IMG/VR virus record: IMGVR_UViG_3300045988_163888
Span: 1 to 62,808 of that record
DNA length: 62,808 nt
Direction: 5' to 3' (one strand)
DNA from: a virus
Notes under the pieces: model-generated
Told to the model about the DNA's origin: nothing
The model's input: only the letters and a program-made list of their open reading frames with translations
The model's database searches: none
Shown here: piece after piece, positions 1 through 62,808 of the stretch
Position numbering within the stretch: the first letter of the stretch is position 1
Layout of the letters: every line of letters begins with the position of its first letter
Position numbers and translations under genes: made by a program

Positions 1-337
1 ATTTTTTTTTTGCCTCCTCACGTTCTGCCTTGACCTTCGCGGAATACTCATGGTTAAATTCCCACACCGCCTGAGAGATTTCAAGGGCGGTTTCCGGCGC
101 ATTGTCAAGCAGGAATTTCGCCTGAATTTCGGACATGTCAGCGCCATAGACAAGAGCCAGCGTTTCCAACTGCTCGCCCGCGCCCGCGAACTCAATGTTG
201 AACTCATGCAGAGCCACTCGACCACGCCCCTTGAAAGGATGGATTGTGAGCTTCTGAACCTTTTCACCGACTTTGACGCTGATTTCCTTCGTGGGAACTT
301 CCAGTGCCTTTACAGTAGACAAATCAATAGCCATATG
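1..337 (-). CDS. tail assembly chaperone G (5' portion; ORF continues across the circular junction, stop at 62696..62698)
   Basis: ATG at 337-335 preceded by GGAGG RBS; lies between major tail protein and tape measure genes; reading frame runs into an A10 slippery run that is shared with a -1 frame extension. Confidence 0.7.
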
Positions 338-1423: not shown

Positions 1424-1860
1424 TGCGCTAAATTTGGGCGGTTTATCACGCGCAAATAGAGCAAGACAGACTGGACATACCATGTATCTTCCGAGCGCGT
1501 ATTTACGCCCGTTTTGTACACCATAATGTCAAGTTCCGGGTGGTTTGCAACGGTGATAATTGCTCCCTCTGTAAGTAGGTTGAACTCATTTTCAATTGCC
1601 AGTGCCGCCCGTCCGCAACGCAATGTTCCTGTATCCGCTTTTGCGTAAATATCATACTCAACAAGTGCAGTTGCCATGCGCGTGCTTGCCGTCGAGTAAA
1701 TTTCCTCATCGCCGCCAATCCACGTTTCACGGACCCACAAATTTTTACCCGACGGGTCAAATTTCACGTTTTCAAACTGGAAATCGCTCTCATCAAAAAT
1801 GTTATTCTTGATGATTCGCGCCCGCATTGCGTTTCTGATGATTTCGTCGTCAATTGCCAT
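1417..1860 (-). CDS. neck/tail-terminator-like structural protein (hypothetical)
   Basis: ORF in head-tail joining block immediately upstream of major tail protein. Confidence 0.4.
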   Translation of the reverse strand: MAIDDEIIRNAMRARIIKNNIFDESDFQFENVKFDPSGKNLWVRETWIGGDEEIYSTASTRMATALVEYDIYAKADTGTLRCGRAALAIENEFNLLTEGAIITVANHPELDIMVYKTGVNTRSEDTWYVQSVLLYLRVINRPNLAQG

Positions 1861-1861
1861 T

Positions 1862-2284
1862 TTATGGATTCTCCCTGATTGCTTGTTCCGCGTATTTGTT
1901 TACGTCGTTTTCCACGCCAGCAACAGTCATTTCCACAAACCGCGCGGGCGCTTGTTTACTCCAGCCCTCGTTCAATTTTTTGATGTAAGGCGTTGAGTTG
2001 GCGATATAGAGCGTATCACCAGCATTAACCCTGATAAAGGCTTGATTTGCACGCCCATAATCAATCACAAGGCTGTTATGCAAGTCGTACTTGTAGTCAA
2101 TCGCCCCAATCGAGCACCACCAGTTCCAGCGCGCATTACCTGTATCAACGGGCGTTTTAATCGTAATCCGCCGGAACGCTTCAACCATTGCAATTTTGGC
2201 AAAATCCGTAATGCGATTTTTAACTCTCTTCTCAAACCGCTTTATCCCGTCAGGGTCTGTCATGTCAAATTGCATACTTATCAC
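1862..2284 (-). CDS. HK97 gp10-like tail completion/neck protein
   Basis: position in neck block; TGNARWNW-type motif resembling gp10-family. Confidence 0.4.
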   Translation of the reverse strand: MISMQFDMTDPDGIKRFEKRVKNRITDFAKIAMVEAFRRITIKTPVDTGNARWNWWCSIGAIDYKYDLHNSLVIDYGRANQAFIRVNAGDTLYIANSTPYIKKLNEGWSKQAPARFVEMTVAGVENDVNKYAEQAIRENP

Positions 2285-2745
2285 CCACGCAACGTAAAGT
2301 AGTAATCAGCTGGAGCGTTGCCCATCCACGTATCGCCACGCACCGCCGCGATGTGGTAAGTCTTGCCGCCGAATTCGAGCGTGTCCGTCGTTGTAGCAAT
2401 CCCTCCCGACGTCGCGTTGTAAGGGCGCATTTCCTCCAGCGTTTTTGTCTTGCCGTTGTTGATGATTACAGGGTCGCCAACTTGCGCCGCTCTGGAGTTG
2501 ATAACCTCTGTATAAGGCACGCGCATAATTTGGTCATCAGAAAGGTAATTTTTGCCGTCAACAAGCCGCTGATTGACCTGTTCGGGCGGGTAACATTGGA
2601 TTTCCCGCGCAATCGTCGTTGTTGCGTCTTCGCCCGTTTCCCAGTTGTAAGTTTTAAAGTTGTACTTCAAAATTGCGGTATTCCGAAAAACTTTAGCCTT
2701 GACAAGTTTCCCGCTGATTTTTTGAAATGGTGTGAGTTTTGCCAT
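2281..2745 (-). CDS. head-tail joining (head closure-like) protein, hypothetical
   Basis: ORF with 4-nt overlap coupling to neighbours in neck block. Confidence 0.35.
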   Translation of the reverse strand: MAKLTPFQKISGKLVKAKVFRNTAILKYNFKTYNWETGEDATTTIAREIQCYPPEQVNQRLVDGKNYLSDDQIMRVPYTEVINSRAAQVGDPVIINNGKTKTLEEMRPYNATSGGIATTTDTLEFGGKTYHIAAVRGDTWMGNAPADYYFTLRG

Positions 2746-2906
2746 GTTTCAACGCTCCCTTGTTATCTCTTTACACATAAGGCAAGATTGTCAATCCCGA
2801 ACCCCAAAAGCCATAAAAAAGCCCCTGTTTTGTCATAAAGAACTGGTACAGGGGCGAAACCATAAGGGCGAGGAGGTAGCGCCCATTATTCCCGCAAAAA
2901 TCGGAT

Positions 2907-3380
2907 TTATCGTACAGTTCTGCCCTGTACAATACCTCCGTTATCGTCCGCGCTTGCGCCCGGCAGGATTTCCCCGCCCATCGAGCGGATCAAGTTGCGA
3001 ACGGAAATGGTTAAAATATCCCCCTGAAAATCTTTGCTGAAAACAACGCCGTTAGCGGACTGGATACCCATTGTAAGCAGGCTGTTGGGCTCAATGATTG
3101 ATTCGTCAAGCGACAAAAGGTAGATTGCCTCTTTTGCTGTTGCCTCTTTGAGCAGGTCTGGAATATCAAGCGTTCCGGCGGGGTCGTATGCAAACGCCTC
3201 CCCGCTGTCATCGTAAAACAGCGTAAACCGCTGAATAAGGTTAGTCGCTGTACACAATGCCGCGAGTTTCTGCTTGTCCGACGCGTCATCCCAGTTTGTA
3301 GCCCACAAAAAGGACGCAAAAAATGCGTCTGCCCAGTCTTTCGAGCAGTAGGATTTGAGTTCAGGGAGTGTTTCTGCCAT
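2907..3380 (-). CDS. head-tail connector (gp6-like) protein, putative
   Basis: position after capsid genes; size and acidic character typical of head-tail adaptors. Confidence 0.4.
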   Translation of the reverse strand: MAETLPELKSYCSKDWADAFFASFLWATNWDDASDKQKLAALCTATNLIQRFTLFYDDSGEAFAYDPAGTLDIPDLLKEATAKEAIYLLSLDESIIEPNSLLTMGIQSANGVVFSKDFQGDILTISVRNLIRSMGGEILPGASADDNGGIVQGRTVR

Positions 3381-8855: not shown

Positions 8856-11420
8856 TCAGCCAACGTTGCCAGCTGAGGCAACCACGATTTTTCGGGACGC
8901 GTATTCGCCAAGCAAGAAATAGCCCGTCAAGTCGTAAATATGGTCTTCCTGCGTGGTATCCACATCGTCAGGGTCTCTTTGTGATCGCTGTAAAACAGGG
9001 ACCGTGCGTATAAAATTCCGGCAATGGTCAAACACAAACAAGCCCGCGTCCGCATCGCGCTCGATTGCGCCTGTAAGACGCTCCCTAAGTAGCGTCAACA
9101 TCTGATGCCGAGTTCCCGGCGCTTTGTTGCAAGGTGCAAAAAACACGCCGTATTCCTCAAACTGCTTCGCAACAGTCACTTGCGCCGCTGATGTTGAGGC
9201 AAAAATTGCAGAATCGGCAATACTTTCATCAACGCGATAACCGAGCATAGCCTCCGTTTCCTTGATACGCTCTGCACGGTCTCTTATGCTTGACTTGTCG
9301 CCCTCGTTCGCCTTGCCTGTGGAACCGTAAAGCTCTTGTATTAAAAAAGCGTCACCTGCGATTGTTGGACGTTTTTCACCGTCCGCTGTTATGTAGTCAG
9401 TGCCATCAGATACAGCAAACCAGCCGACCGCCCATGGATGTGAGTTGCCATCGTCGTAACTCTTGACAATGTACCACGATTCCGGAATCTTGAAGCGCGG
9501 CATAACGTGAATTTGTTCGTTCCATAGGTCATCAACCGCCCCGCCCGCCGTGATGTTCCAGTCGCCTTCCAACATTGCTTTAATCAGCCAATCTTGCCCC
9601 AGTCCACGCAGGCGGTTCGCGTACTCTTCCTGATTCAGCGACGGATTATCTGACAGCTTCGCAGGCACAAATTGACGGAGCATGCCGCCTTCCGAGGCAG
9701 ATGTTTTCCATATCGTTTCGGCTGGTTTAGGGTCAATAAACATCGATTTTACCCAGTTATGCCCCGGTCCGCCGGGGTTAGACCCGCACAAAATCTTAGG
9801 GAAAGTTAAGTTCGGAATTAACTTCCTGATAGCCGGGTCAATTGCAACTTGCTTTGACACTCGACAGCGACCGCGCAAAAACCGGTATTGATACTCTGTA
9901 AAGTGCGTCAATTCGTCAATCAACAGCACGCCGATTTCCGCGCCCTGATACTTCATGACATCTTTTTCGTACTGGCAATGGCACAAATGTATAGTGCTCC
10001 CAGATTCAACAAAACGGATTTTTGGCGGGTTTGTTGTAATGCGCACGCTCTTATGTTCCACCGCTTCAGCAAGCAACGCCGGAAAGCCTGTTTCCCCCTC
10101 AAAATGATTTTTCAAAAGGTCATCACTCAACCGCCGGAAAAGGTACACTTGCAAGCCCCGGACGTTGTCGCAGAGCATAATGGCAAAAATTCGCATTAAA
10201 AACGAGTTATGCGTGGGTATACAGCTTTTCCCGGCAAGATAACAGCTGGACGCGGAATCAACTTGGATGCACTTGACAGGCACACTCTTACAACGCTCCG
10301 CAGATACAATCATCCGCCGCCGTGAGTATGCATTCCGTGCCGTTTTTATGCGTTTTTTGTATCTGTCCAATTGAGTTATATCAGCTTGCCACGGGATAAA
10401 GCGCACGCGGTATTTTATGCCGCAATCTTTGCCATTTAGACGCGCTATACCATACGTAAGAGTTGCCTTAATTCCAAGCGAGTTAAGCAAAAAGCATACC
10501 GATACCGCAATGTCTTTGTTTATACTGGTGTACTCACAATGCCCATTCTCGCCAACTGTACCGTCCGAATCCATAAAACCGCGCAAAAGCTCCATACGGT
10601 TTTCAATCGTGGTAAAAAGATACCGTTCCGGCACATGCTTATTGTGTATCAGATTCAGGCGTTTAAGGAGCGGAGTTAAACCGATTATCCCCCACTTATA
10701 TTTCGCTGTCCGTTTGGTAACTTCAAATCCGCAAGCGCGGATGTAAGGGATAACATCGTCATCGCCCGTGGAAAAGCCGCAACCGTCGGAGTTACCATCA
10801 CCAAGCCACAACCCTAGTACATAAGGAGGGATTATCAGTTCCTCCCGCGATTCCGGCATTTCTACTGCCCTGCAAACCGCTACAGAGTGATTCAGCCGTC
10901 CACCCACTCGCAAAGTTGCCGCAATGGTTTCCGTCGTTACGACAGATTCAAACTTGCGGCCTTTGTTACAATACACGCGTTTTGAGTTTGCAACCGCCAA
11001 ATCCGGACGTTTGCCCATGCCACGCAAGGGACGTTTTGCGCGCCGATTTGCGCGATATTCTGGCGTGCTTTTGCGTTCCGCTTCTCTTTGTGCGTCTGTC
11101 TTTGTCACCCACTGATGCAAATCGTCAGCGATGATTTTAGAGCCGTCATCAAAAACGACTTTCCGGCATGGTCTATCCGTCAAAATTGGCGTTTCTGCTA
11201 TGACGTTGCAAGGCTTTCCGTTTTCGTCAAAAACAACATCCCCAACATGTACATCAGCCATTCGCTTAAAGCCGCAAGTGGTCAAAATTGGCGTTTCAAC
11301 CCATAGGGCTTTCCCACCCCCCGCAGCCCCGCCGTACAAAATCTCTGTCGCGTCCGTTTTCAGCACGCAACCTTGCCGCGGATGCAACGCCGGAAGCCCG
11401 ATTTCGTTCACTGCCATCAT
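8856..11420 (-). CDS. terL: terminase large subunit precursor containing an intein with LAGLIDADG homing endonuclease
   Basis: Walker A split as GGAAGGGK / SFLMRI, Walker B LLIDELTHF, C-terminal nuclease-like domain; 371-aa insertion with intein blocks and LGLWLGDGNSDG / LLRGFMDSDG motifs. Confidence 0.85.
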   Translation of the reverse strand: MMAVNEIGLPALHPRQGCVLKTDATEILYGGAAGGGKALWVETPILTTCGFKRMADVHVGDVVFDENGKPCNVIAETPILTDRPCRKVVFDDGSKIIADDLHQWVTKTDAQREAERKSTPEYRANRRAKRPLRGMGKRPDLAVANSKRVYCNKGRKFESVVTTETIAATLRVGGRLNHSVAVCRAVEMPESREELIIPPYVLGLWLGDGNSDGCGFSTGDDDVIPYIRACGFEVTKRTAKYKWGIIGLTPLLKRLNLIHNKHVPERYLFTTIENRMELLRGFMDSDGTVGENGHCEYTSINKDIAVSVCFLLNSLGIKATLTYGIARLNGKDCGIKYRVRFIPWQADITQLDRYKKRIKTARNAYSRRRMIVSAERCKSVPVKCIQVDSASSCYLAGKSCIPTHNSFLMRIFAIMLCDNVRGLQVYLFRRLSDDLLKNHFEGETGFPALLAEAVEHKSVRITTNPPKIRFVESGSTIHLCHCQYEKDVMKYQGAEIGVLLIDELTHFTEYQYRFLRGRCRVSKQVAIDPAIRKLIPNLTFPKILCGSNPGGPGHNWVKSMFIDPKPAETIWKTSASEGGMLRQFVPAKLSDNPSLNQEEYANRLRGLGQDWLIKAMLEGDWNITAGGAVDDLWNEQIHVMPRFKIPESWYIVKSYDDGNSHPWAVGWFAVSDGTDYITADGEKRPTIAGDAFLIQELYGSTGKANEGDKSSIRDRAERIKETEAMLGYRVDESIADSAIFASTSAAQVTVAKQFEEYGVFFAPCNKAPGTRHQMLTLLRERLTGAIERDADAGLFVFDHCRNFIRTVPVLQRSQRDPDDVDTTQEDHIYDLTGYFLLGEYASRKIVVASAGNVG
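10197..11309 (-). other. intein (Ala1, Trp-B12 / Cys-F4 / Thr-G5 = class 3-like) with double LAGLIDADG endonuclease, inserted in TerL P-loop
   Basis: N-terminus ALWVETPILTT-GFKRMADVHVGDVV aligns to block A with Ala in place of Cys1; block B GSKIIADDLHQW; C-terminus SCIPTHN followed by Ser +1. Confidence 0.7.
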
Positions 11421-14484: not shown

Positions 14485-15231
14485 TCATGGCAAATCTTCT
14501 TCCGGCTCAAATTCGCCAATTTTCAAAAAGGCGTTAACAGTTTCACCGTCAACATGGCGTTGCAACACATCAAAACCAAAAAAATCACAAAAAGCATCTG
14601 ATTCCGCCTGAGAGTTAAAAACAATCACCTTAAAAAAATCCGGTGAATTCTTGCCATTCGCTTTATCTTTTTCAACTTTTCGCTTCTCTTTTATCTTCTT
14701 GATTTCCTCAATATCAGCTTTGACTTGCTCATCTTCTTCATCAAATTTTGTGCCTAAAATAGCATCAGCAACGGGACTGTCAAAATTTGCCGCAATATCA
14801 AAAGCATTAAAGCCGACTTCTGCAAAATTGATTCCGTCTTTGAGTAACAAATCGCCAATTTTAGTTAAATCGTAACTTCCTGCCAAATTTTGATTGTTCA
14901 GGATAATATTCAGCTCGCGTTCCTCTTTTTCGTCTACGTCAACCGCGCTAACTGTGATTAAATAGTCGTTTTCGTGTGTTTCCGGATTGTATCTTTCCGC
15001 TTTGTCTAGGTTTCGTAAACGCTGATGCCCACCAACTAAAATTCCCGTCCGTTTATTCCACACCAGAGGCTCTACAAGCCCTTTTTTCTTGAGGATTTTC
15101 CGGAGCGTTTTATCACTCTGTTCGTCCATAAAACGCGGGTTATATGGCGCTTCTTTAATCTGACTTCGTCGTATGTCCATAACCTCAAAACGCTGGTATT
15201 TACAACGCTGGATTTCCTGTTCATTCGCCAT
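14485..15231 (-). CDS. ParB-like N-terminal (nuclease/sulfiredoxin-type) domain protein
   Basis: GGHQRL motif region (VGGHQRLRNL); ATG 15231 with AGGAA RBS overlapping stop of upstream gene. Confidence 0.65.
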   Translation of the reverse strand: MANEQEIQRCKYQRFEVMDIRRSQIKEAPYNPRFMDEQSDKTLRKILKKKGLVEPLVWNKRTGILVGGHQRLRNLDKAERYNPETHENDYLITVSAVDVDEKEERELNIILNNQNLAGSYDLTKIGDLLLKDGINFAEVGFNAFDIAANFDSPVADAILGTKFDEEDEQVKADIEEIKKIKEKRKVEKDKANGKNSPDFFKVIVFNSQAESDAFCDFFGFDVLQRHVDGETVNAFLKIGEFEPEEDLP

Positions 15232-15968
15232 TTTCAATTCCTCCCTGTTGATTATTGTATTCATCCTCAAGTTCCCGTTCGTATTCAGCTTCAGCCATTT
15301 TGCGTGCATTTTCAAACATTTTCCGATGTTCATGCGCCTCAATGTATGGGAAAACCTCTTTAACTCGCGCGTAATCTTCCGGAAAATGTGCTTTCAAAAC
15401 GTCCAAGTTTTCCGGTCGAAGGTCGCCAATACTGCGCTTGCAGTAGCGATATTCCGGAGAAAGCTGTATTTTATGCATTTCAAGATACGATTTCACTTTT
15501 TTCGGGTTCCATTCTGCAAGAGGATATATTTTTTTGCGTATTGTATCAACGCCACCAATTCCCTTTAGCATAGCGTTTCTAGATATGGATTCACAAATCA
15601 TTTCACCAGTAGCAATCCACTCACAGCCAAAAGTCAGCTTCAAATAATCAACAAGATCCTTTGGAGTTATAGCTGGACAATCATTGGTAAAACGGTTTGT
15701 ATCTCTAAACATCCCCCCTAAATACACCAAACCAAGCATAAAATGAGGAACTCTCAATATTTCAATATTGTACCGTTTTTCTAGATAGTGTATATACGTT
15801 TCCTGAAAATTCAATCCTTTAACGACATACATAAAATACGGGTAAACATGTCTAAAGTTTTTACAACACAAATCAAGTGTAGCAATACTATCTTTGCCAA
15901 GCGACACGCCAACAATAACACTTTGCGTCAAGGTGCTTGCGTACCTAACAGCGTCCATTAAAGCCATA
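15221..15968 (-). CDS. phosphoadenosine phosphosulfate reductase-family (DndC-like) protein
   Basis: SLGKDS P-loop (PP-loop ATP pyrophosphatase) motif; TAGGAGG RBS before ATG 15968. Confidence 0.7.
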
Positions 15969-16040
15969 ACAAAACCTCCTAAAAATAGTAAAGCATACCC
16001 ACAAAACAATAGGTATGCTTCACCAACCACGCAAAAACAA

Positions 16041-16361
16041 TCAGCCACCAGCCAGTCCGAGACCGTTCCGAAGCCGTCTGTATGCTTGCTTTCTTGTCGT
16101 TCCGCGTCCTTCGTAATTCTCACCGTCAATAACAACTGCGGCGGTAAATTTTTCTTTTCCGCTCCATTTTGTTCTGACGTATGAGATGTCATTCCGCAGG
16201 ATACGCCTTGGATTACCGTCCCGATCCACAATAACACCGCGTTCATACTTAAAAGAACGGTATCGGCTCTTTTTGGGCACTGTCTCACCGCGAAAAGACG
16301 ATGTTCTACCAAGACCGCTTGGCGGTACACCTCTGGTATTGCTGTTAGTTCTCCTTGCCAT
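16041..16361 (-). CDS. hypothetical basic protein, first gene downstream of late element copy 5
   Basis: AGGAG RBS; Arg-rich 106 aa. Confidence 0.45.
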   Translation of the reverse strand: MARRTNSNTRGVPPSGLGRTSSFRGETVPKKSRYRSFKYERGVIVDRDGNPRRILRNDISYVRTKWSGKEKFTAAVVIDGENYEGRGTTRKQAYRRLRNGLGLAGG

Positions 16362-20275: not shown

Positions 20276-21064
20276 TTAGTTTTTCTTTTCGAAGTGTTCA
20301 AACTCCGGCACTTTGATTTTGTCTTTCGGAAAATCTTCAAGCTCAACGAGCTTTTGCATGATGTAGCGCATCTGCGGGTGCGCTCCGGGCGCGAGACGGA
20401 GCTTGAGCATATCTTCCCATTGCTTGTACATCCCGGTGACATACAGCACGGTCGCGGTTGAAAGGGGCAAAACGGCGCGGGCTTCCTGCGGACGCGCTCC
20501 CTTGCGAATCATCAGGCGATATGCGGCTTCCGCTGAGACGCACTCCATATACCACGCGTCGCTCAAAACACCGAATTCATCCCATGCGAACGGAACGGGC
20601 TTGATAAAGTCGATACAGTCGGACATGTTGCAATACCGCGTCGAGCGCTCCATAAAGGACATCTGCCTGTGGCGTATCAGCTCGCGTGCCACGCCGATAT
20701 CAACCGTAAACTTGACGGTCATATAGTCGTCGGCTTCCGGCAATTCTTTCAAGTCTTCGAGTTTTCCTTCCAATGTAAGATAATCTCTAACATTGACTGT
20801 GAGGCGTTTTTCCAAATCCCCGGTTGTTCCAAGTCGATCCCAAATACCGTAAGATTTAACCCAAAGACTCAGAATGTCCCAGTCCGCCGCCACTCTCACA
20901 TGCTCGAACGGCGTTTCATGGCGATTTTTCCAAAGGTTTTCGACAAAGCCGGGCTTGCTTCCTACTTTGTCTTGCGTTCCCGTGCAAACGCGGGCGATTG
21001 TCTCAATTTTTCGGAAGTGGTCGTATTCGGTGTAGATTTCTACGGACGGTTCAATGATTCTCAT
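20276..21064 (-). CDS. thyX: flavin-dependent thymidylate synthase ThyX
   Basis: ThyX signature RHRQMSFMERS (RHR-X7-S). Confidence 0.85.
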   Translation of the reverse strand: MRIIEPSVEIYTEYDHFRKIETIARVCTGTQDKVGSKPGFVENLWKNRHETPFEHVRVAADWDILSLWVKSYGIWDRLGTTGDLEKRLTVNVRDYLTLEGKLEDLKELPEADDYMTVKFTVDIGVARELIRHRQMSFMERSTRYCNMSDCIDFIKPVPFAWDEFGVLSDAWYMECVSAEAAYRLMIRKGARPQEARAVLPLSTATVLYVTGMYKQWEDMLKLRLAPGAHPQMRYIMQKLVELEDFPKDKIKVPEFEHFEKKN

Positions 21065-24211: not shown

Positions 24212-24510
24212 CGTTCTTTCCCTCCCTCGAAATTTCGCCAAAACTCCATGTCCGCGGGTGATTCAAACCACTTTTTCCAGCAAGCCGCGCAATCATACGC
24301 TTCTCCGCAACTTCTAATCGGCGGGCAGTCCCATTTCGCGCAAAAATAAGCCAGTGCGAAATTGTCCAGCGCTTTCAACCGTTCTCCATTCGTGCCAAAC
24401 GCTTTCGGGCATTCCCCGTCCACGCGCCGGAAGCCGCCGAAACGGTCGCAAACAACGTACTTGCAATCGCCCGGAAACTTCCGAGCAAAGTTACATTCAA
24501 GACAGTTCAT
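24208..24510 (-). CDS. hypothetical Cys-rich protein
   Basis: 12 Cys in 100 aa. Confidence 0.45.
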   Translation of the reverse strand: MNCLECNFARKFPGDCKYVVCDRFGGFRRVDGECPKAFGTNGERLKALDNFALAYFCAKWDCPPIRSCGEAYDCAACWKKWFESPADMEFWRNFEGGKER

Positions 24511-25754
24511 TTCAGTTTCCTTTCGGTTAATTCAATGCGCATTCCAATCCAGCGCATTACGTTGACGCACATTGAGTTTCCGCACGCCTTGTATCGGTGT
24601 GAATCGGGACATTCTTCTTCCGGCTTGCCTCTCCACGGAATACGCGTCCAGTTGTCCGGGAAGCCCATCAGCCGCTCACATTCGACGGGAAGCAGGATGC
24701 GGACGGATGTGGCATAGACTAAAGGAAGATTGTTTCCTCCGGTCCCGGCGTTTGCGGAGATAACCGGGGCACAATCGACTCTCTTAACTCGGCTGTCCTT
24801 CGCATGATTTTCATAGCATACCGCCTGTTCTCCGTCCGAATTCGCCATCAAAGCAATCGGAGCCTCATGGTTACATGTTATCGCCGAGGGACAACCTGAA
24901 GAGATTTCCGCATTGCTCTGTCCGGACGCCATGACCAACGTCGGCCCGTTCACGTTTTTGCGCCGTGTGTCCACCGTCGCGGACACACGTCCGGTAATAG
25001 CCCCGTTATATCCATCGCATCCAAGCACATTCAGAAGCTCGCTGTCTTCGCCTGTTCCTGCAATGCTTCTGCCAGCTCTTTCGGCAAAGCGTTTCCTTTT
25101 CGTTCTGCGCGGCGGAGTATTCCGGAACACGCTTTCCGGCTCAAATAATACTCCTGCGGGACATCGGAAATCGGAACCAAAATGTCCGACAACGAACACA
25201 CGTCGTCGTCTTTGCGGAATGGCACGAGGGAATCCGTCCACTCTGACGTACTGAGCGTCCAGCACTCTCCATGCGCAAGAATACCCGATTTCATCAATTT
25301 TTCGCAGGAACGCCCGGAAGTCATCCCCTCGATTTGCACTGAAAACACCGGGGACGTTTTCCCACACGAACCATCTGGGACGCATAGTCTCAAGAAGTTC
25401 GCAATAGGCGAGGCAGAGGGCGCTTCGCGGGTCATTAAGTCCATCCCGCTTTCCCGCGACGCTAAATCCCTGGCACGGGGTCCCTCCGACGAGGAGATCA
25501 ACTCCTCCGGGAACAACGACATCTGCTCCAGATTCATTTTTGAACCGCTGAAGTTTTCCTGTCTCATTTTCGATTGTCTCCACTTTGATTTTTGTCATAT
25601 CTCCCAAGTTCGGAACTTCGGGAAAACGATGTTTCAGGACTGCGCACGGGAACGGTTCAATTTCGGAAAACCAAGCTGCTTTCCATCCGAGCGGCATCCA
25701 CGCAAGGCTTGCCGCCTCAACGCCGCTGCATACTGATGCGTAAATCATGTTCAT
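24507..25754 (-). CDS. DNA (cytosine-5)-methyltransferase
   Basis: motif IV GGTPCQGFS, motif VI VWENVPG, motif I-like YASVCSGVEAAS. Confidence 0.85.
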   Translation of the reverse strand: MNMIYASVCSGVEAASLAWMPLGWKAAWFSEIEPFPCAVLKHRFPEVPNLGDMTKIKVETIENETGKLQRFKNESGADVVVPGGVDLLVGGTPCQGFSVAGKRDGLNDPRSALCLAYCELLETMRPRWFVWENVPGVFSANRGDDFRAFLRKIDEIGYSCAWRVLDAQYVRVDGFPRAIPQRRRRVFVVGHFGSDFRCPAGVLFEPESVFRNTPPRRTKRKRFAERAGRSIAGTGEDSELLNVLGCDGYNGAITGRVSATVDTRRKNVNGPTLVMASGQSNAEISSGCPSAITCNHEAPIALMANSDGEQAVCYENHAKDSRVKRVDCAPVISANAGTGGNNLPLVYATSVRILLPVECERLMGFPDNWTRIPWRGKPEEECPDSHRYKACGNSMCVNVMRWIGMRIELTERKLK

Positions 25755-29032: not shown

Positions 29033-30151
29033 TCACGCCTCCGCTAAGACTTGCCGGGGCGCTTTCTGCTGTATCAACTCGCCCATAGCTTCCGCAAACA
29101 GCTTCTCGCCGTCCTTGAGACTTGCACATATGCCGTTTTCTTTCATTTTCGCGGCGTATGCTTTACGCAAGGCGGGTTCCGCTACTTTACAGTAGGTCAA
29201 AAATTCTTCAGCCTTAAACACGCTGGAAAGGGTATTAAACGCCGCGTTGATATCGGGGATTTCCTTGCCGCCGGAAGTCGTCTTTAGAACGTAATTTCCG
29301 CATGCTCCTTTTTCCGCGCACCGCGCCTTGATTTCCTCTGTCACACGGTCGGCAAATTTGGCAACAACCTTAAACTTGCCCGCCAGCTCGCACAAAAAAG
29401 CGTCCGGGACTTCTGCAAGCGTCGGGAGCGCGTCAAGCTTCTGCGATACAACCATCACTTTTGACGCAAACTGTGCGTATGCAGGGCATGTTCCGTAATA
29501 AGCCGCCTTGCAATATCGGCATTGCTTTTCCCCTGCCACAGCGGGCGCGGAATCGCGCTTGCACTCAGCAATCACGCCCATAACGTAATCCCTGATACCC
29601 TCCATGCCCTCAAAAGTGTAGTTGCTGTGCTGATGGATAACCGGGTTGTAAAAGTGTACGTCAGCGACCTTGCGGTCAAACTCTTGCATAGCCGCCAGCG
29701 CATAAGCCGCGCCCTGCGGGTTGTTCGCCGCCTCCGTAACTTCCCGATGCCCAAATTTCCAGTCAATCACAATCACCTTTTCAGGCGTGACAATCACCAC
29801 ATCTGTGGTTCCGTTGTAAACTTCTAAGCCACAAAACTTGTAGCTTAATTTGCGCTCAGAAAAAATCTGAAAGTCATTGCCGGAAATTCCCGAAAGTCTC
29901 ACTACTTCCGCGAACTTGTCAAACGCCGCCATAACGTCCGAATCGTCAACCGACGGAAGCGGCTTGCCCTCAACGAACGCAGTAATCAGCTCTGATGTAG
30001 CCGCATGTTTGAGTGTCCCCTCTTTCGAGTTTTCGGTATCAAAGGAGGGCAAGCCCTCCTCTAACTTGTAGCTTGCCGGGCAAGCCTCGCGCCGTTCGAG
30101 CGTGGACGGTGAAAAAACATGATGCTTCGTTTCTGTCGTTTCCATTGTCAT
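29033..30151 (-). CDS. PD-(D/E)XK-family recombination exonuclease with Cas4-like Cys cluster
   Basis: D..E.K core (VIVIDWKFG) and C-terminal CRYCKAAYYGTCPAY; coupled 4-nt overlap with RecT gene. Confidence 0.6.
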   Translation of the reverse strand: MTMETTETKHHVFSPSTLERREACPASYKLEEGLPSFDTENSKEGTLKHAATSELITAFVEGKPLPSVDDSDVMAAFDKFAEVVRLSGISGNDFQIFSERKLSYKFCGLEVYNGTTDVVIVTPEKVIVIDWKFGHREVTEAANNPQGAAYALAAMQEFDRKVADVHFYNPVIHQHSNYTFEGMEGIRDYVMGVIAECKRDSAPAVAGEKQCRYCKAAYYGTCPAYAQFASKVMVVSQKLDALPTLAEVPDAFLCELAGKFKVVAKFADRVTEEIKARCAEKGACGNYVLKTTSGGKEIPDINAAFNTLSSVFKAEEFLTYCKVAEPALRKAYAAKMKENGICASLKDGEKLFAEAMGELIQQKAPRQVLAEA

Positions 30152-35458: not shown

Positions 35459-35707
35459 ATGGGTATAAACATAAAGCGCGACAATCGGGGGACTGTCACG
35501 CTGAATGAAGCTCTGGACGGAGGTTGCATTGATAACCGCACTATTATCAATCTGCCTCCTTACGTGGTGTGGGCTGCGGCTGGAATTGCGCTGGCATTTT
35601 GTGCTACTGCAATAGGTTGTCGCCTCATCCCGCAAGAGGTACACCACACATTCGACCAAAGCGCAAATGTGCATATTTCTAGCACGGGGAACGGAGGGTT
35701 GAAGTAA
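35459..35707 (+). CDS. small membrane protein
   Basis: one TM helix (VVWAAAGIALAFCATAIGC). Confidence 0.4.
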   Translation: MGINIKRDNRGTVTLNEALDGGCIDNRTIINLPPYVVWAAAGIALAFCATAIGCRLIPQEVHHTFDQSANVHISSTGNGGLK

Positions 35708-36810
35708 TGGCTTTACGCTGTATAAAAGGTTGCTATTACGCCTATTTTAGGGACGTTGACGGGCGGCTCAAGACCCGTACGCTCAAAACCAAAGACCCGG
35801 TAGACGCTATCAGACTGCACGCAGAATACATGTCTTTTGTGCTCAAACGCAAGCAAACGCATGTTATAGTCAAGGACTTCCCCGAGTTCTTCCCGCAGGC
35901 TCATTTAGCTGTAACACCGCTTCCAAAAACCGTTCTTCCCCTCCCTAAGGAGGGGGAACATAGCCGAAACGGTTTGCCGCTCGCAAGCATGATTGATGAA
36001 CTGGAAAAAATTCAGCCATTGCCTGTCACAAGCCGCCGAATCATAGCCAGATTTTTAAAAAGTATGACTGTTAAATACATGGATATGGTAACTCCGGAAA
36101 TGGCACAAAATTACCTAGAACAAAATTTCTCCCACGGGAGAAACTACAAGTCCTACAATAACAATAAGGGCGTGTTAAACAAGGCTTTCCGGCTATTGCT
36201 TGTCAAAGCAAAATTGACGCGCTCTCCGTTCGAGAGTATCGTATCACGCAAGATAAAAAATGTGCTTTCGCATCGTCCGATTACAGCAACAGAGTTCAAG
36301 CGCATTTACCGTGCCGCCAACCTTCCGACGCGCGTCGCCGCCGCTTTAGGCTTTTTCGCCGGAATGGACATATCAACAGCCTTTTCCATACCTTGTAACG
36401 CAATTTACCTTAAAGAGCGCCTGATACGCTGGAAACGCCCTAAATCTGGGCAATGGTTTACATGTGGTATACAGCCGGAATTACTTCAAATCCTTACAGA
36501 GCTTAACTTCCCCGCAGATTCCGAAAAACCGCTCCTAAGCCACTTAAACTCAAAAACAGCCCATTCCGCTGGAGTGGACTACAAAAAGCTTTTCGAAAAA
36601 CTAAAAATTAAAGACACAGAGGAGGGCAAAGCAAGTTTCCATAGCTTCCGCGCATCGTTCTTCACGCGATGCGACGCGGGCAATCTGCACAGACGTACAA
36701 CATCTCTTGCCGGAGGACACAAGAGCGATGCGATGAACGACCTGTACAGCCATGACGTTTCAGCCGCCCACGAGGTCGAAAAATTGCCGAAAATCGGGCT
36801 TTTTTCGTGA
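35707..36810 (+). CDS. int: tyrosine-type site-specific integrase
   Basis: catalytic motifs HSFRASF (HxxR) and LAGGHKSD...NDLYSH (H...Y); GGAGGG RBS. Confidence 0.85.
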   Translation: MALRCIKGCYYAYFRDVDGRLKTRTLKTKDPVDAIRLHAEYMSFVLKRKQTHVIVKDFPEFFPQAHLAVTPLPKTVLPLPKEGEHSRNGLPLASMIDELEKIQPLPVTSRRIIARFLKSMTVKYMDMVTPEMAQNYLEQNFSHGRNYKSYNNNKGVLNKAFRLLLVKAKLTRSPFESIVSRKIKNVLSHRPITATEFKRIYRAANLPTRVAAALGFFAGMDISTAFSIPCNAIYLKERLIRWKRPKSGQWFTCGIQPELLQILTELNFPADSEKPLLSHLNSKTAHSAGVDYKKLFEKLKIKDTEEGKASFHSFRASFFTRCDAGNLHRRTTSLAGGHKSDAMNDLYSHDVSAAHEVEKLPKIGLFS

Positions 36811-62273: not shown

Positions 62274-62808
62274 TCACAAGTCTTCTTCGATTTCAACCCA
62301 CTCCTCGAGCTGCTTTACTGTCTTTTTGCCTGTCAGAACAGCTTCAACGCGCTCCTTCCGTTCCGCGTCGGAATATTCGTCCGCACGTTTTTTCCGGTGT
62401 GTCTTGATAAATTTCCTGCGCTCCGCAATCACGGAAGGCAAGTTGCGCTCATCAAACATCTTGTTAGTGTATTCCGCACGTGACAGGTTATCAATGTCAA
62501 TAAGCATGGTGCGCAAATCCAGCCCTAACATGTACATGTCGCTGTAAAGAGTGCCGACCTGCTTCAGCAGGCAGTCTTTCTCCTTGATTTCCAGCTCTTT
62601 TTCACAAAAAGACGCCGCCCTCAGCCAGATAACATCACGGACCGAGAGCGGCTTTTTAAGGATACTCAAATCCTTGTATTCAGAGGCGAGTAAAATCAGT
62701 TCGGCGTATTCGTCTCCGTCACCGCCGTTCCGGATTTTTTTTTTGCCTCCTCACGTTCTGCCTTGACCTTCGCGGAATACTCATGGTTAAATTCCCACAC
62801 CGCCTGAG
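62274..62808 (-). CDS. tail assembly chaperone GT: 3' end of G plus -1 frame C-terminal extension (window 62734..62808 duplicates 1..75)
   Basis: -1 frame opens exactly at the A10 run (TGA immediately upstream in that frame), has no independent start codon, and ends at 62274 just upstream of the tape measure gene; classic G/GT architecture. Confidence 0.7.
62734..62808. repeat. 75-bp terminal redundancy of the window (identical to 1..75), i.e. circular closure point
   Basis: exact sequence identity of both window ends. Confidence 0.95.

Follow-up and report, generated by a model that had tools for sequence, protein, structure and literature searches.

The insertion in the TerL gene

In the viral genome record IMGVR_UViG_3300045988_163888 of IMG/VR (62,808 nucleotides [nt]; here called the window, meaning the whole stretch of DNA that was analyzed), an open reading frame (ORF) on the minus strand encodes a precursor of the large terminase subunit, TerL, that is interrupted by a predicted intein. 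The precursor protein starts with MMAVNEIGLPALHPRQGCVLKTDATEILYGGAAGGGK, and the N-terminal side of the junction reads ...EILYGGAAGGGK, after which the intein opens with ALWVETPILTTCGFKRMADVHVGDVV and ends 368 residues on with VPVKCIQVDSASSCYLAGKSCIPTHN, followed by the C-extein sequence SFLMRIFAIM. This 368-amino-acid (aa) insertion splits the Walker A motif GGAAGGGK/S (GxxxxGK/S, where the slash marks the junction, as it does below) between Lys37 and Ser, and the Ser at position +1 of the intein doubles as the Walker A Ser.

The host protein was identified by its Walker A (GGAAGGGKS) and Walker B (VLLIDELTH) motifs, its C-terminal nuclease domain, its adjoining portal gene, and its homology to other TerL proteins. 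In tblastn searches, residues 406 to 838 matched annotated large terminases from phages of Pseudomonas, Erwinia, Salmonella, Acinetobacter, and Klebsiella at 42 to 45% identity (E values down to 5e-103), and these matches open at residue 406, the Ser directly after ...THN. The predicted spliced TerL is 486 aa long (residues 1 to 37 joined to residues 406 to 854, with residues 38 to 405 excised), and the Pfam profile Terminase_6N scored 21.5 bits on it, just below the cut-off of 22. When aligned to the intein-free TerL proteins of Pseudomonas phage Almagne and Salmonella phage vB_SE1_KM, the spliced protein is gapless at the junction, and the run EILYGGAAGGGKS-LMRI (including E-I-L-Y-G-G-A-A-G-G-G-K-S) is invariant. 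Thus, the element sits between the Lys and the Ser of Walker A. The exact precursor protein is also on record in ENA assembly ERZ1749166 (NODE_111), and the same precursor has been recorded on two contigs.

An earlier note on this DNA, made from its sequence alone, had placed an intein at positions 10197..11309. The intein is present, but that interval overshoots its end by 9 nt (371 aa including SFL), and the true span is 10206..11309. The sequence strings quoted in the note are all there except one, in which the dash in ILTT-GF is Cys12. Its proposal that removal of the insertion restores the P-loop agrees both with the intein-free homologues and with a natural empty allele described below.

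Residues of the splicing domain

Class 3 inteins are defined by a nonnucleophilic residue at position 1, the Trp-Cys-Thr (WCT) signature of Trp at B12, Cys at F4, and Thr at G5, and Ser or Thr at position +1 (PMC2807308; PMC5222942). The window intein has Ala1, Trp67 at B12, Cys347 at F4, Thr366 at G5, a His-Asn end, and Ser+1. In a phmmer search of all Protein Data Bank (PDB) sequences, the top three matches were the class 3 DnaB inteins MchDnaB1 of Mycobacterium chimaera (6rix, E = 2.7e-23; 6riy, E = 1.3e-22) and Msm DnaBi1 of Mycobacterium smegmatis (6bs8, E = 2.4e-21), and the alignments take in both halves of the splicing domain, N- and C-terminal. The N-terminal 73 to 80 residues align without gaps, so that residue numbering transfers directly from the DnaB class 3 inteins. 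On this basis, Asp62-x-x-His65-x-Trp67 matches the "DxxH" motif described for Msm DnaBi1 (PMC6195587) together with its WCT Trp, while the MchDnaB1 counterparts of His65, Trp67, Cys347, and Thr366 are its His65, block B Trp, Cys124, and Thr143. A Cys-His-Thr triad has been described in MchDnaB1 (PMC7664689). Cys347 lies in the sequence VPVKCIQVD and also aligns with the block F Cys of 6bs8.

These alignments bear out what the earlier note had read from the sequence: Ala in place of Cys1, Trp at B12 without Thr at B7 (the position is Asp62, and the segment aligns to the HQW of 6rix and 6bs8), Cys in block F, and Thr before the terminal His-Asn, followed by Ser+1. Its assignment of the element to class 3 stands on these residues and on the fold, family, and population evidence given below.

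We also considered whether the position 1 residue had been misjudged. A class 1 (standard) intein was rejected, as it needs Cys or Ser at position 1 for the acyl shift and the residue here is Ala. A canonical Cys1 concealed by a sequencing error, the outcome that the earlier note had set against its own assignment, was looked for and ruled out: the GCC codon is two substitutions away from any Cys codon, the diverged allele L007 (see below) has Ala encoded by GCG, and in the family this residue is Ala or Gly.

The family of related inteins

With the intein alone as query, 108 proteins were found in a collection of 5.8 billion, none more than 45% identical to it. Residue counts were taken from pairwise maps (100 to 104 homologues) and from a MAFFT alignment of 65 sequences (64 homologues). 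In both, five residues vary little or not at all, namely the B10 His, the B12 Trp, the F4 Cys, the G5 Thr, and the Asn at the C-terminal end, and all five are present in each of the 65 sequences of the alignment. Of 100 homologues, 91 have Ala or Gly at position 1, and a single one has Ser. The missing Thr at B7 is itself a class 3 trait: Asp, as part of the "DxxH" motif, occupies B7 in 54 of the 65 aligned sequences. At position +1, 37 homologues have Thr, 24 have Ser, and 3 have Cys, so that 61 of 64 carry Thr or Ser; at position -1, Lys is found in 59 of the 64.

The host proteins of this family are of two types: P-loop ATPases interrupted after GK (TerL proteins of the RQxGK and GGAAGGGK types and AAA_24/AAA_25 proteins) and Cas4/RecB-like nucleases interrupted after DYK. 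This is the same host range as reported for actinobacteriophage class 3 inteins. Three homologues (P0002, P0006, and P0022) are TerL proteins of the GGAAGGGK type. The two nearest inteins, P0001 and P0003 (45% identity, both metagenomic), sit in non-TerL exteins; in P0003, an AAA_25 ATPase domain follows ...THN/S, and P0001 has a different C-extein, without a Pfam match. These hosts are consistent with class 3 inteins hopping between the P-loop sites of unrelated ATPases.

A basic linker separates block B from the DNA-recognition region of the window intein and has 17 Lys or Arg residues in the 52-residue stretch analyzed (residues 70 to 121). In the 65-sequence alignment, the linker columns are mostly filled by P0002 alone among the 64 homologues; by eye, similar basic stretches are seen in P0022, P0001, and P0003. 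The linker may be an extra DNA-binding arm.

Structure model and homing endonuclease region

An AlphaFold2 model built on the 65-sequence alignment had a mean pLDDT (predicted local distance difference test) score of 93.1 and a predicted template modeling (pTM) score of 0.89. Confidence was low mainly at residues 91 to 120, where 10-residue blocks had mean pLDDT values of 56 to 66, and fell below 50 only at residues 111 to 115. In Foldseek searches of the PDB, the whole model matched PI-SceI (E = 7e-18; template modeling [TM] score, 0.71) and the central domain matched I-DmoI. The splicing domain, which has the Hedgehog/intein (HINT) fold, matched the class 3 DnaB inteins, including 6rix and 6bs8, with target-normalized TM scores of 0.86 to 0.89 (0.89 for 6bs8).

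The earlier note had also reported a double LAGLIDADG homing endonuclease within the insertion, and this reading holds on three grounds: profile scores, alignment to PI-SceI, and fold. The isolated intein scored 31.3 bits against Pfam LAGLIDADG_3 (cut-off, 22.5) and 22.1 bits against Hom_end (cut-off, 21.1), and an acidic residue closes each of the two motifs. The PI-SceI alignment is anchored at LGLWLGDG (Asp171), NKHVP (Lys224), and FMDSDG (Asp249), which are placed opposite PI-SceI Asp218, Lys301, and Asp326, respectively, the active-site residues of that enzyme. Lys224 and Asp249 are conserved in 65 of 65 aligned sequences and Asp171 is conserved in 60 of 65.

Natural alleles, selection, and history

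We scanned the precursor against IMG/VR and one genome per GTDB species, and three of the alleles recovered (L007, L008, and L009) were informative. L007, on an independent IMG/VR contig, bears the intein and has 97% protein identity to the window, with differences that are mostly synonymous. L008 (positions 1620..3077 of an IMG/VR contig) is a natural empty site that encodes a 486-aa TerL 99% identical to the predicted spliced product; its junction reads GGAAGGGKSFLMRIF, and its P-loop, GGAAGGGKSFLM, is exactly as predicted for that product. The insertion is therefore precise and in frame, and the intein-free allele corresponds to the spliced protein. L009, on the same contig as L087, is an intein-free allele with 86% identity; this 64-kb contig was binned with a Lachnospiraceae metagenome-assembled genome, which is a weak hint that Lachnospiraceae are the host. 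At more distant TerL loci (L010 to L013, 35 to 40% identity), class 3 inteins of 328 to 373 aa occupy the same YGGA[AV]GGGK/ site. In all, 128 related TerL sites were recovered, of which 5 were occupied and 123 were empty.

To compare selection across the intein, dN/dS ratios (omega) were calculated as Nei-Gojobori estimates, with the intein regions of the window compared to those of L007. Omega was 0.098 for the whole intein, 0.08 and 0.084 for the N- and C-terminal splicing parts, respectively, and 0.072 for the endonuclease region, with a value of 0.31 in the basic linker showing relaxed constraint there. The extein was under very strong purifying selection, with values of 0.011 to 0.021 in all three allele pairs. 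The low omega values in the splicing parts and in the endonuclease region indicate purifying selection on both intein activities. In addition, the value for the endonuclease region and the occupancy of 5 in 128 sites indirectly support the predicted site-specific cleavage of an intein-less allele.

Between the window and L007, the intein dS (0.35) is about half of the extein dS (0.67), and by extein sequence the empty L008 is no farther from the window than the intein-bearing L007. From this difference in dS and the position of L008, we infer that strict co-descent fits the data less well than does either recombination or a move of the intein between TerL alleles that had already diverged. The low intein dS and the low occupancy also fit spread by homing. 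A signature of recent import was not seen in the base composition, where the G+C content is 48.4% in the intein, 48.5% in the whole window, and 50.1% in the C-extein, and third-position G+C (GC3) is 47.6% versus 53.8%, a gap too small to interpret.

The DNA around the L008 empty site reads ...GGCGGAGCGGCGGGCGGAGGGAAG/AGTTTTTTAATGCGC..., compared to ...GGCGGGGCTGCGGGGGGTGGGAAA/TCGTTTTTAATGCGA... for the window with the intein deleted. Although L008 and the window are 99% identical in protein, their DNA is only 90.8% identical, and around the junction they differ at 9 of 42 nt, versus 9.2% overall (P = 0.013). This excess is suggestive only, either of a co-conversion tract or of a cleavage-resistant site. 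The Ser+1 codon is TCG in both intein-bearing alleles (window and L007) and AGT in the empty L008. As a marker of occupancy, this codon was rejected, since in the 128 related TerL loci AGC and TCN each occur both with and without an intein.

Genome context

The window begins and ends with a 75-nt direct repeat (1..75 and 62734..62808), which indicates that the phage genome (~62.7 kb) is complete and was assembled as a circle. Genes for the portal, a MuF-like head morphogenesis protein, and the scaffold lie directly downstream of TerL, and the tape-measure and tail proteins are encoded at the other end of the window. The coordinates of the intein features and of other genes are collected in Table 1.

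Searching the window by tblastn with 96 intein queries gave no second intein of the same family (best E value outside the TerL locus, 0.017), and no tRNA genes were found in the window. In other phages, inteins classically reside in three of the proteins of Table 1, the Cas4-like nuclease, ThyX, and C-5 cytosine methylase. This phage is possibly temperate, and its PAPS-reductase-domain protein may act in DNA or nucleotide modification.

Table 1. Features of the predicted TerL intein and other genes of the window
Feature	Coordinates	Strand	Basis or remarks
TerL precursor ORF (N-extein, intein, and C-extein)	8856..11420	minus	854 aa plus stop; ORF listing and translation
N-extein, residues 1 to 37	11310..11420	minus	Ends in Walker A GGAAGGGK (11310..11333), a stretch invariant in intein-free homologues
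Class 3 intein (predicted), Ala1 to Asn368, 368 aa	10206..11309	minus	phmmer to 6rix, 6riy, and 6bs8; 108 homologues; AlphaFold model; Foldseek
Block A, ALWVETPILTTCG	11271..11309	minus	Position 1 is Ala (codon GCC), without N-terminal nucleophile
Cys48	11166..11168	minus	Equivalent of Msm DnaBi1 Cys48; gap-free alignment to 6bs8
Block B, GSKIIADDLHQW	11109..11144	minus	Asp62 (B7), His65 (B10), Trp67 (B12)
Basic linker, intein residues 71 to 122	10944..11099	minus	Lineage specific; low model confidence
DNA-recognition and LAGLIDADG region, intein residues 123 to 330	10320..10943	minus	Pfam; PI-SceI alignment; Foldseek to PI-SceI and I-DmoI
LAGLIDADG motif 1, LGLWLGDGNSDG	10782..10817	minus	Asp171 aligns with PI-SceI Asp218
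Lys224	10638..10640	minus	Aligns with PI-SceI Lys301
LAGLIDADG motif 2, LLRGFMDSDG	10560..10589	minus	Asp249 aligns with PI-SceI Asp326
Block F, VPVKCIQVDSASSCYLA	10233..10283	minus	Cys347 (F4, 10269..10271), predicted initiating nucleophile; aligns with MchDnaB1 Cys124
Block G, GKSCIPTHN	10206..10232	minus	Thr366 (G5), His367, Asn368
C-extein	8859..10205	minus	Opens with Ser+1 (10203..10205); Walker B VLLIDELTH (9903..9929); nuclease domain
PAPS-reductase-domain protein	15221..16330	minus	
ThyX thymidylate synthase	20276..21064	minus	Intein-free
C-5 cytosine methylase	24507..25754	minus	Intein-free
Cas4-like PD-(D/E)XK nuclease (DUF2800)	29033..30151	minus	Intein-free
Tyrosine-integrase-like weak match	35707..36810	plus	22.8 bits, below Pfam cut-off of 27.1; strand opposite to most genes

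Cysteine content and possible redox control

In Msm DnaBi1, Cys48 pairs with the catalytic Cys of block F in a reversible regulatory disulfide and tolerates no substitution, and it has been called nonconserved (PMC6195587). The equivalent position is Cys in 88 of 104 homologues and in 53 of the 65 aligned sequences, counts that come from a set biased towards relatives of a Cys48-bearing query. The relatives collected, about 82 to 85% of which have this Cys, come from phage terminases, Cas4-like nucleases, and helicases, and Cys48 could be a fourth signature residue. With 14 Cys in 368 residues (3.8%), the window intein has essentially the highest Cys content in the family (median, 2.3%), compared to 1.6% in the C-extein. 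Where it has Cys340, Cys356, and Cys363, its relatives have Val/Ile, Leu/Thr, and Leu/Met, respectively, and its Cys12 is Ser in L007. One could propose that a redox toggle between Cys48 and the F4 Cys is general and ancestral in the phage-borne class 3 lineage, so that the redox state of an anaerobic gut host would control TerL maturation and packaging, but we regard this proposal as speculative and decidedly doubtful.

Proposed splicing pathway and alternative explanations

Taken together, we think it very probable that the insertion is a full-length WCT class 3 intein with a two-motif LAGLIDADG endonuclease, located between the Walker A Lys and Ser of TerL in a tailed phage assembled from a gut metagenome. 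The intein is intact and probably active. By analogy with characterized inteins, the 854-aa precursor would be translated with its ATP-binding loop split and would be incapable of DNA packaging. An insertion of 368 residues in the P-loop should leave the precursor without ATPase activity, which would make splicing obligatory for packaging, an argument that has been made for other P-loop inteins (PMC5050341; PMC6195587). The essential role of TerL, in a complete genome with an intact morphogenesis module, also counts in favor of a splicing class 3 intein.

Splicing itself is predicted to be started by the block F Cys347 via a thioester branched intermediate. With the N-S acyl shift ruled out by Ala1, the Cys347 thiol would attack the Lys37-Ala1 peptide bond, positioned by His65 and Thr366 in a Cys-His-Thr triad like that of MchDnaB1 and helped by Trp67 and Asp62. 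This attack would give a thioester-linked block F branched intermediate, from which the N-extein would move to the Ser+1 hydroxyl to form the block G branched intermediate. Cyclization of Asn368, aided by His367, would then free the intein, and an O-N shift would yield the native GGAAGGGKSFLM P-loop and an active TerL. The freed intein may in turn cut intein-less TerL alleles during coinfection and be copied into them by recombinational repair (homing).

Several points weigh against this interpretation. Both the sequence in which the branched intermediates form and the part assigned to Cys347 are carried over from inteins that are only 30 to 45% identical in the splicing domain, and the extra Cys340, Cys356, and Cys363 lie near blocks F and G at positions that are aliphatic in relatives, where they could alter its behavior. 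What speaks for endonuclease activity is the conservation of active-site residues together with purifying selection, and the lower intein dS could come partly from differing codon constraints rather than from recent transfer. One alternative, a splicing intein whose endonuclease is no longer active and which is kept only by vertical inheritance because precise loss is difficult, is in our view unlikely. Decaying endonucleases are found in many phage inteins (bioRxiv 10.1101/2025.01.02.630785), and the 9 of 42 differences around the L008 site would agree with a local population that may already resist cleavage. However, the equivalents of both catalytic Asp residues and of the Lys are intact and nearly invariant across the family, omega in this region is as low as in the splicing domain, and an intein dS below that of the extein suggests relatively recent movement.

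Two other explanations were weighed. A degenerate, nonsplicing insertion, meaning either that the phage is defective and its TerL inactivated or that the assembly is in error, could be suspected from the metagenomic origin of the sequence and from the precedent of at least one class 3-like intein that is a known pseudogene, Arth_1007 (PMC3196547). We consider it very improbable, given an uninterrupted frame with all catalytic residues present, the occurrence of the precursor on two contigs, an allele with 97% identity and mostly synonymous differences on an independent IMG/VR contig, and the extein omega of 0.011 to 0.021. Class 2 (KlbA-type) chemistry shares Ala1 with the window intein (PMC2807308), yet the chance that it operates here is close to negligible: class 2 inteins lack the WCT residues and use Cys+1 to attack the N-terminal junction (PMC2807308), whereas the window intein has the full WCT set and Ser at +1. 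In those class 3 inteins that have been tested, splicing cannot start from Ser+1, and mutation of the F4 Cys abolishes all reactions (PMC5222942). By sequence, moreover, the nearest relatives of the window intein are class 3 inteins and not KlbA.

Comparison with known inteins

The rarity implied by the earlier note does not hold: the paper that founded class 3 (Tori et al. 2010, PMC2807308) already placed WCT inteins in TerL P-loops, and they are present in many cultured phages. Hundreds of TerL and Cas4 class 3 inteins have been catalogued in actinobacteriophages (Kelley et al. 2016, PMC5050341; bioRxiv 10.1101/2025.01.02.630785), splicing has been shown for TerL1-b (BAKA gp6), TerL1-c, and TerL1-e, and endonuclease activity has been shown for TerL1-b and TerL1-c (Kelley et al. 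2016, PMC5050341). Thus, the window intein is not novel in kind, as P-loop TerL class 3 inteins have been described since 2010. With the class, its phage association, and its preference for P-loops in TerL and helicases established already, this element adds little as an intein.

A tblastn search of cultured phages with the intein gave 733 records, 487 of which covered at least 80% of the query, and we read the junctions in five of them. These were Escherichia phage kvi (SRQLGK/ALDVNTP...VKCIQVD...PTHN/T), Vibrio phage 489E54-1 (SRKYGK/ALSLDT.../T), Stenotrophomonas phage SOVA965 (GNGK/PISLETP.../S), Clavibacter phage CMP1 (GVGK/DLDVNTP.../T), and Mycobacterium phage NihilNomen of cluster J (GKG/DLGHNT.../S, one residue further along). 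All five inteins resemble the window intein in host protein, GK/S or GK/T site logic, size, WCT residues, nonnucleophilic position 1, and a full-length LAGLIDADG endonuclease. However, intein identity is only 30 to 36%, and the TerL families are not the same (T4-type RQxGK, in contrast to GGAAGGGK here). In the collection searched, no cultured-phage record joined a TerL of the GGAAGGGK family to an intein, and none covered at least 80% of the precursor.

Among characterized inteins, Msm DnaBi1 and MchDnaB1 (6bs8, 6rix, and 6riy) share with the window intein Ala1-Leu2, the block A pattern, Cys48, DxxH-x-W at Asp62/His65/Trp67, a VPV(R/K)C(V/I)(E/Q)VD block F, and a PTHN block G. They are endonuclease-free mini-inteins of ~139 to 145 aa in a bacterial replicative helicase, whereas the window intein has 368 aa, an endonuclease, a basic linker, and a phage terminase as host, and identity is only moderate. 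The mycobacteriophage Bethlehem DnaB intein, the class 3 prototype (PMC2807308), was compared by its description; it has Trp at B12 (W67), Cys at F4, Thr at G5, and Ser or Thr at +1, as does the class, and likewise comes from a phage and has a P-loop ATPase as host, but it has Pro1, Ser at B7, and a different host protein, in contrast to Ala1 and Asp at B7 here. PI-SceI, the Sce VMA1 intein, has the same two-domain architecture by fold (TM score, 0.71), and the equivalents of its D218, K301, and D326 are kept, but it is a class 1 intein with Cys1 and Cys+1 that is only ~17% identical.

Against this background, what is mildly new is the placement in a TerL family that is without an intein in the cultured phages searched, the lineage-specific basic linker, and the wide conservation of Cys48. 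The window intein extends the class 3 lineage to the GGAAGGGKS TerL family, whose relatives are found in Pseudomonas, Acinetobacter, and Salmonella phages. Together with the diverged, intein-bearing L007 and the 99%-identical empty L008, it also forms a natural test set from gut-type metagenomes, one that gives the exact homing site, a selection signal that can be measured for each domain, and material ready for use in splicing and cleavage assays.

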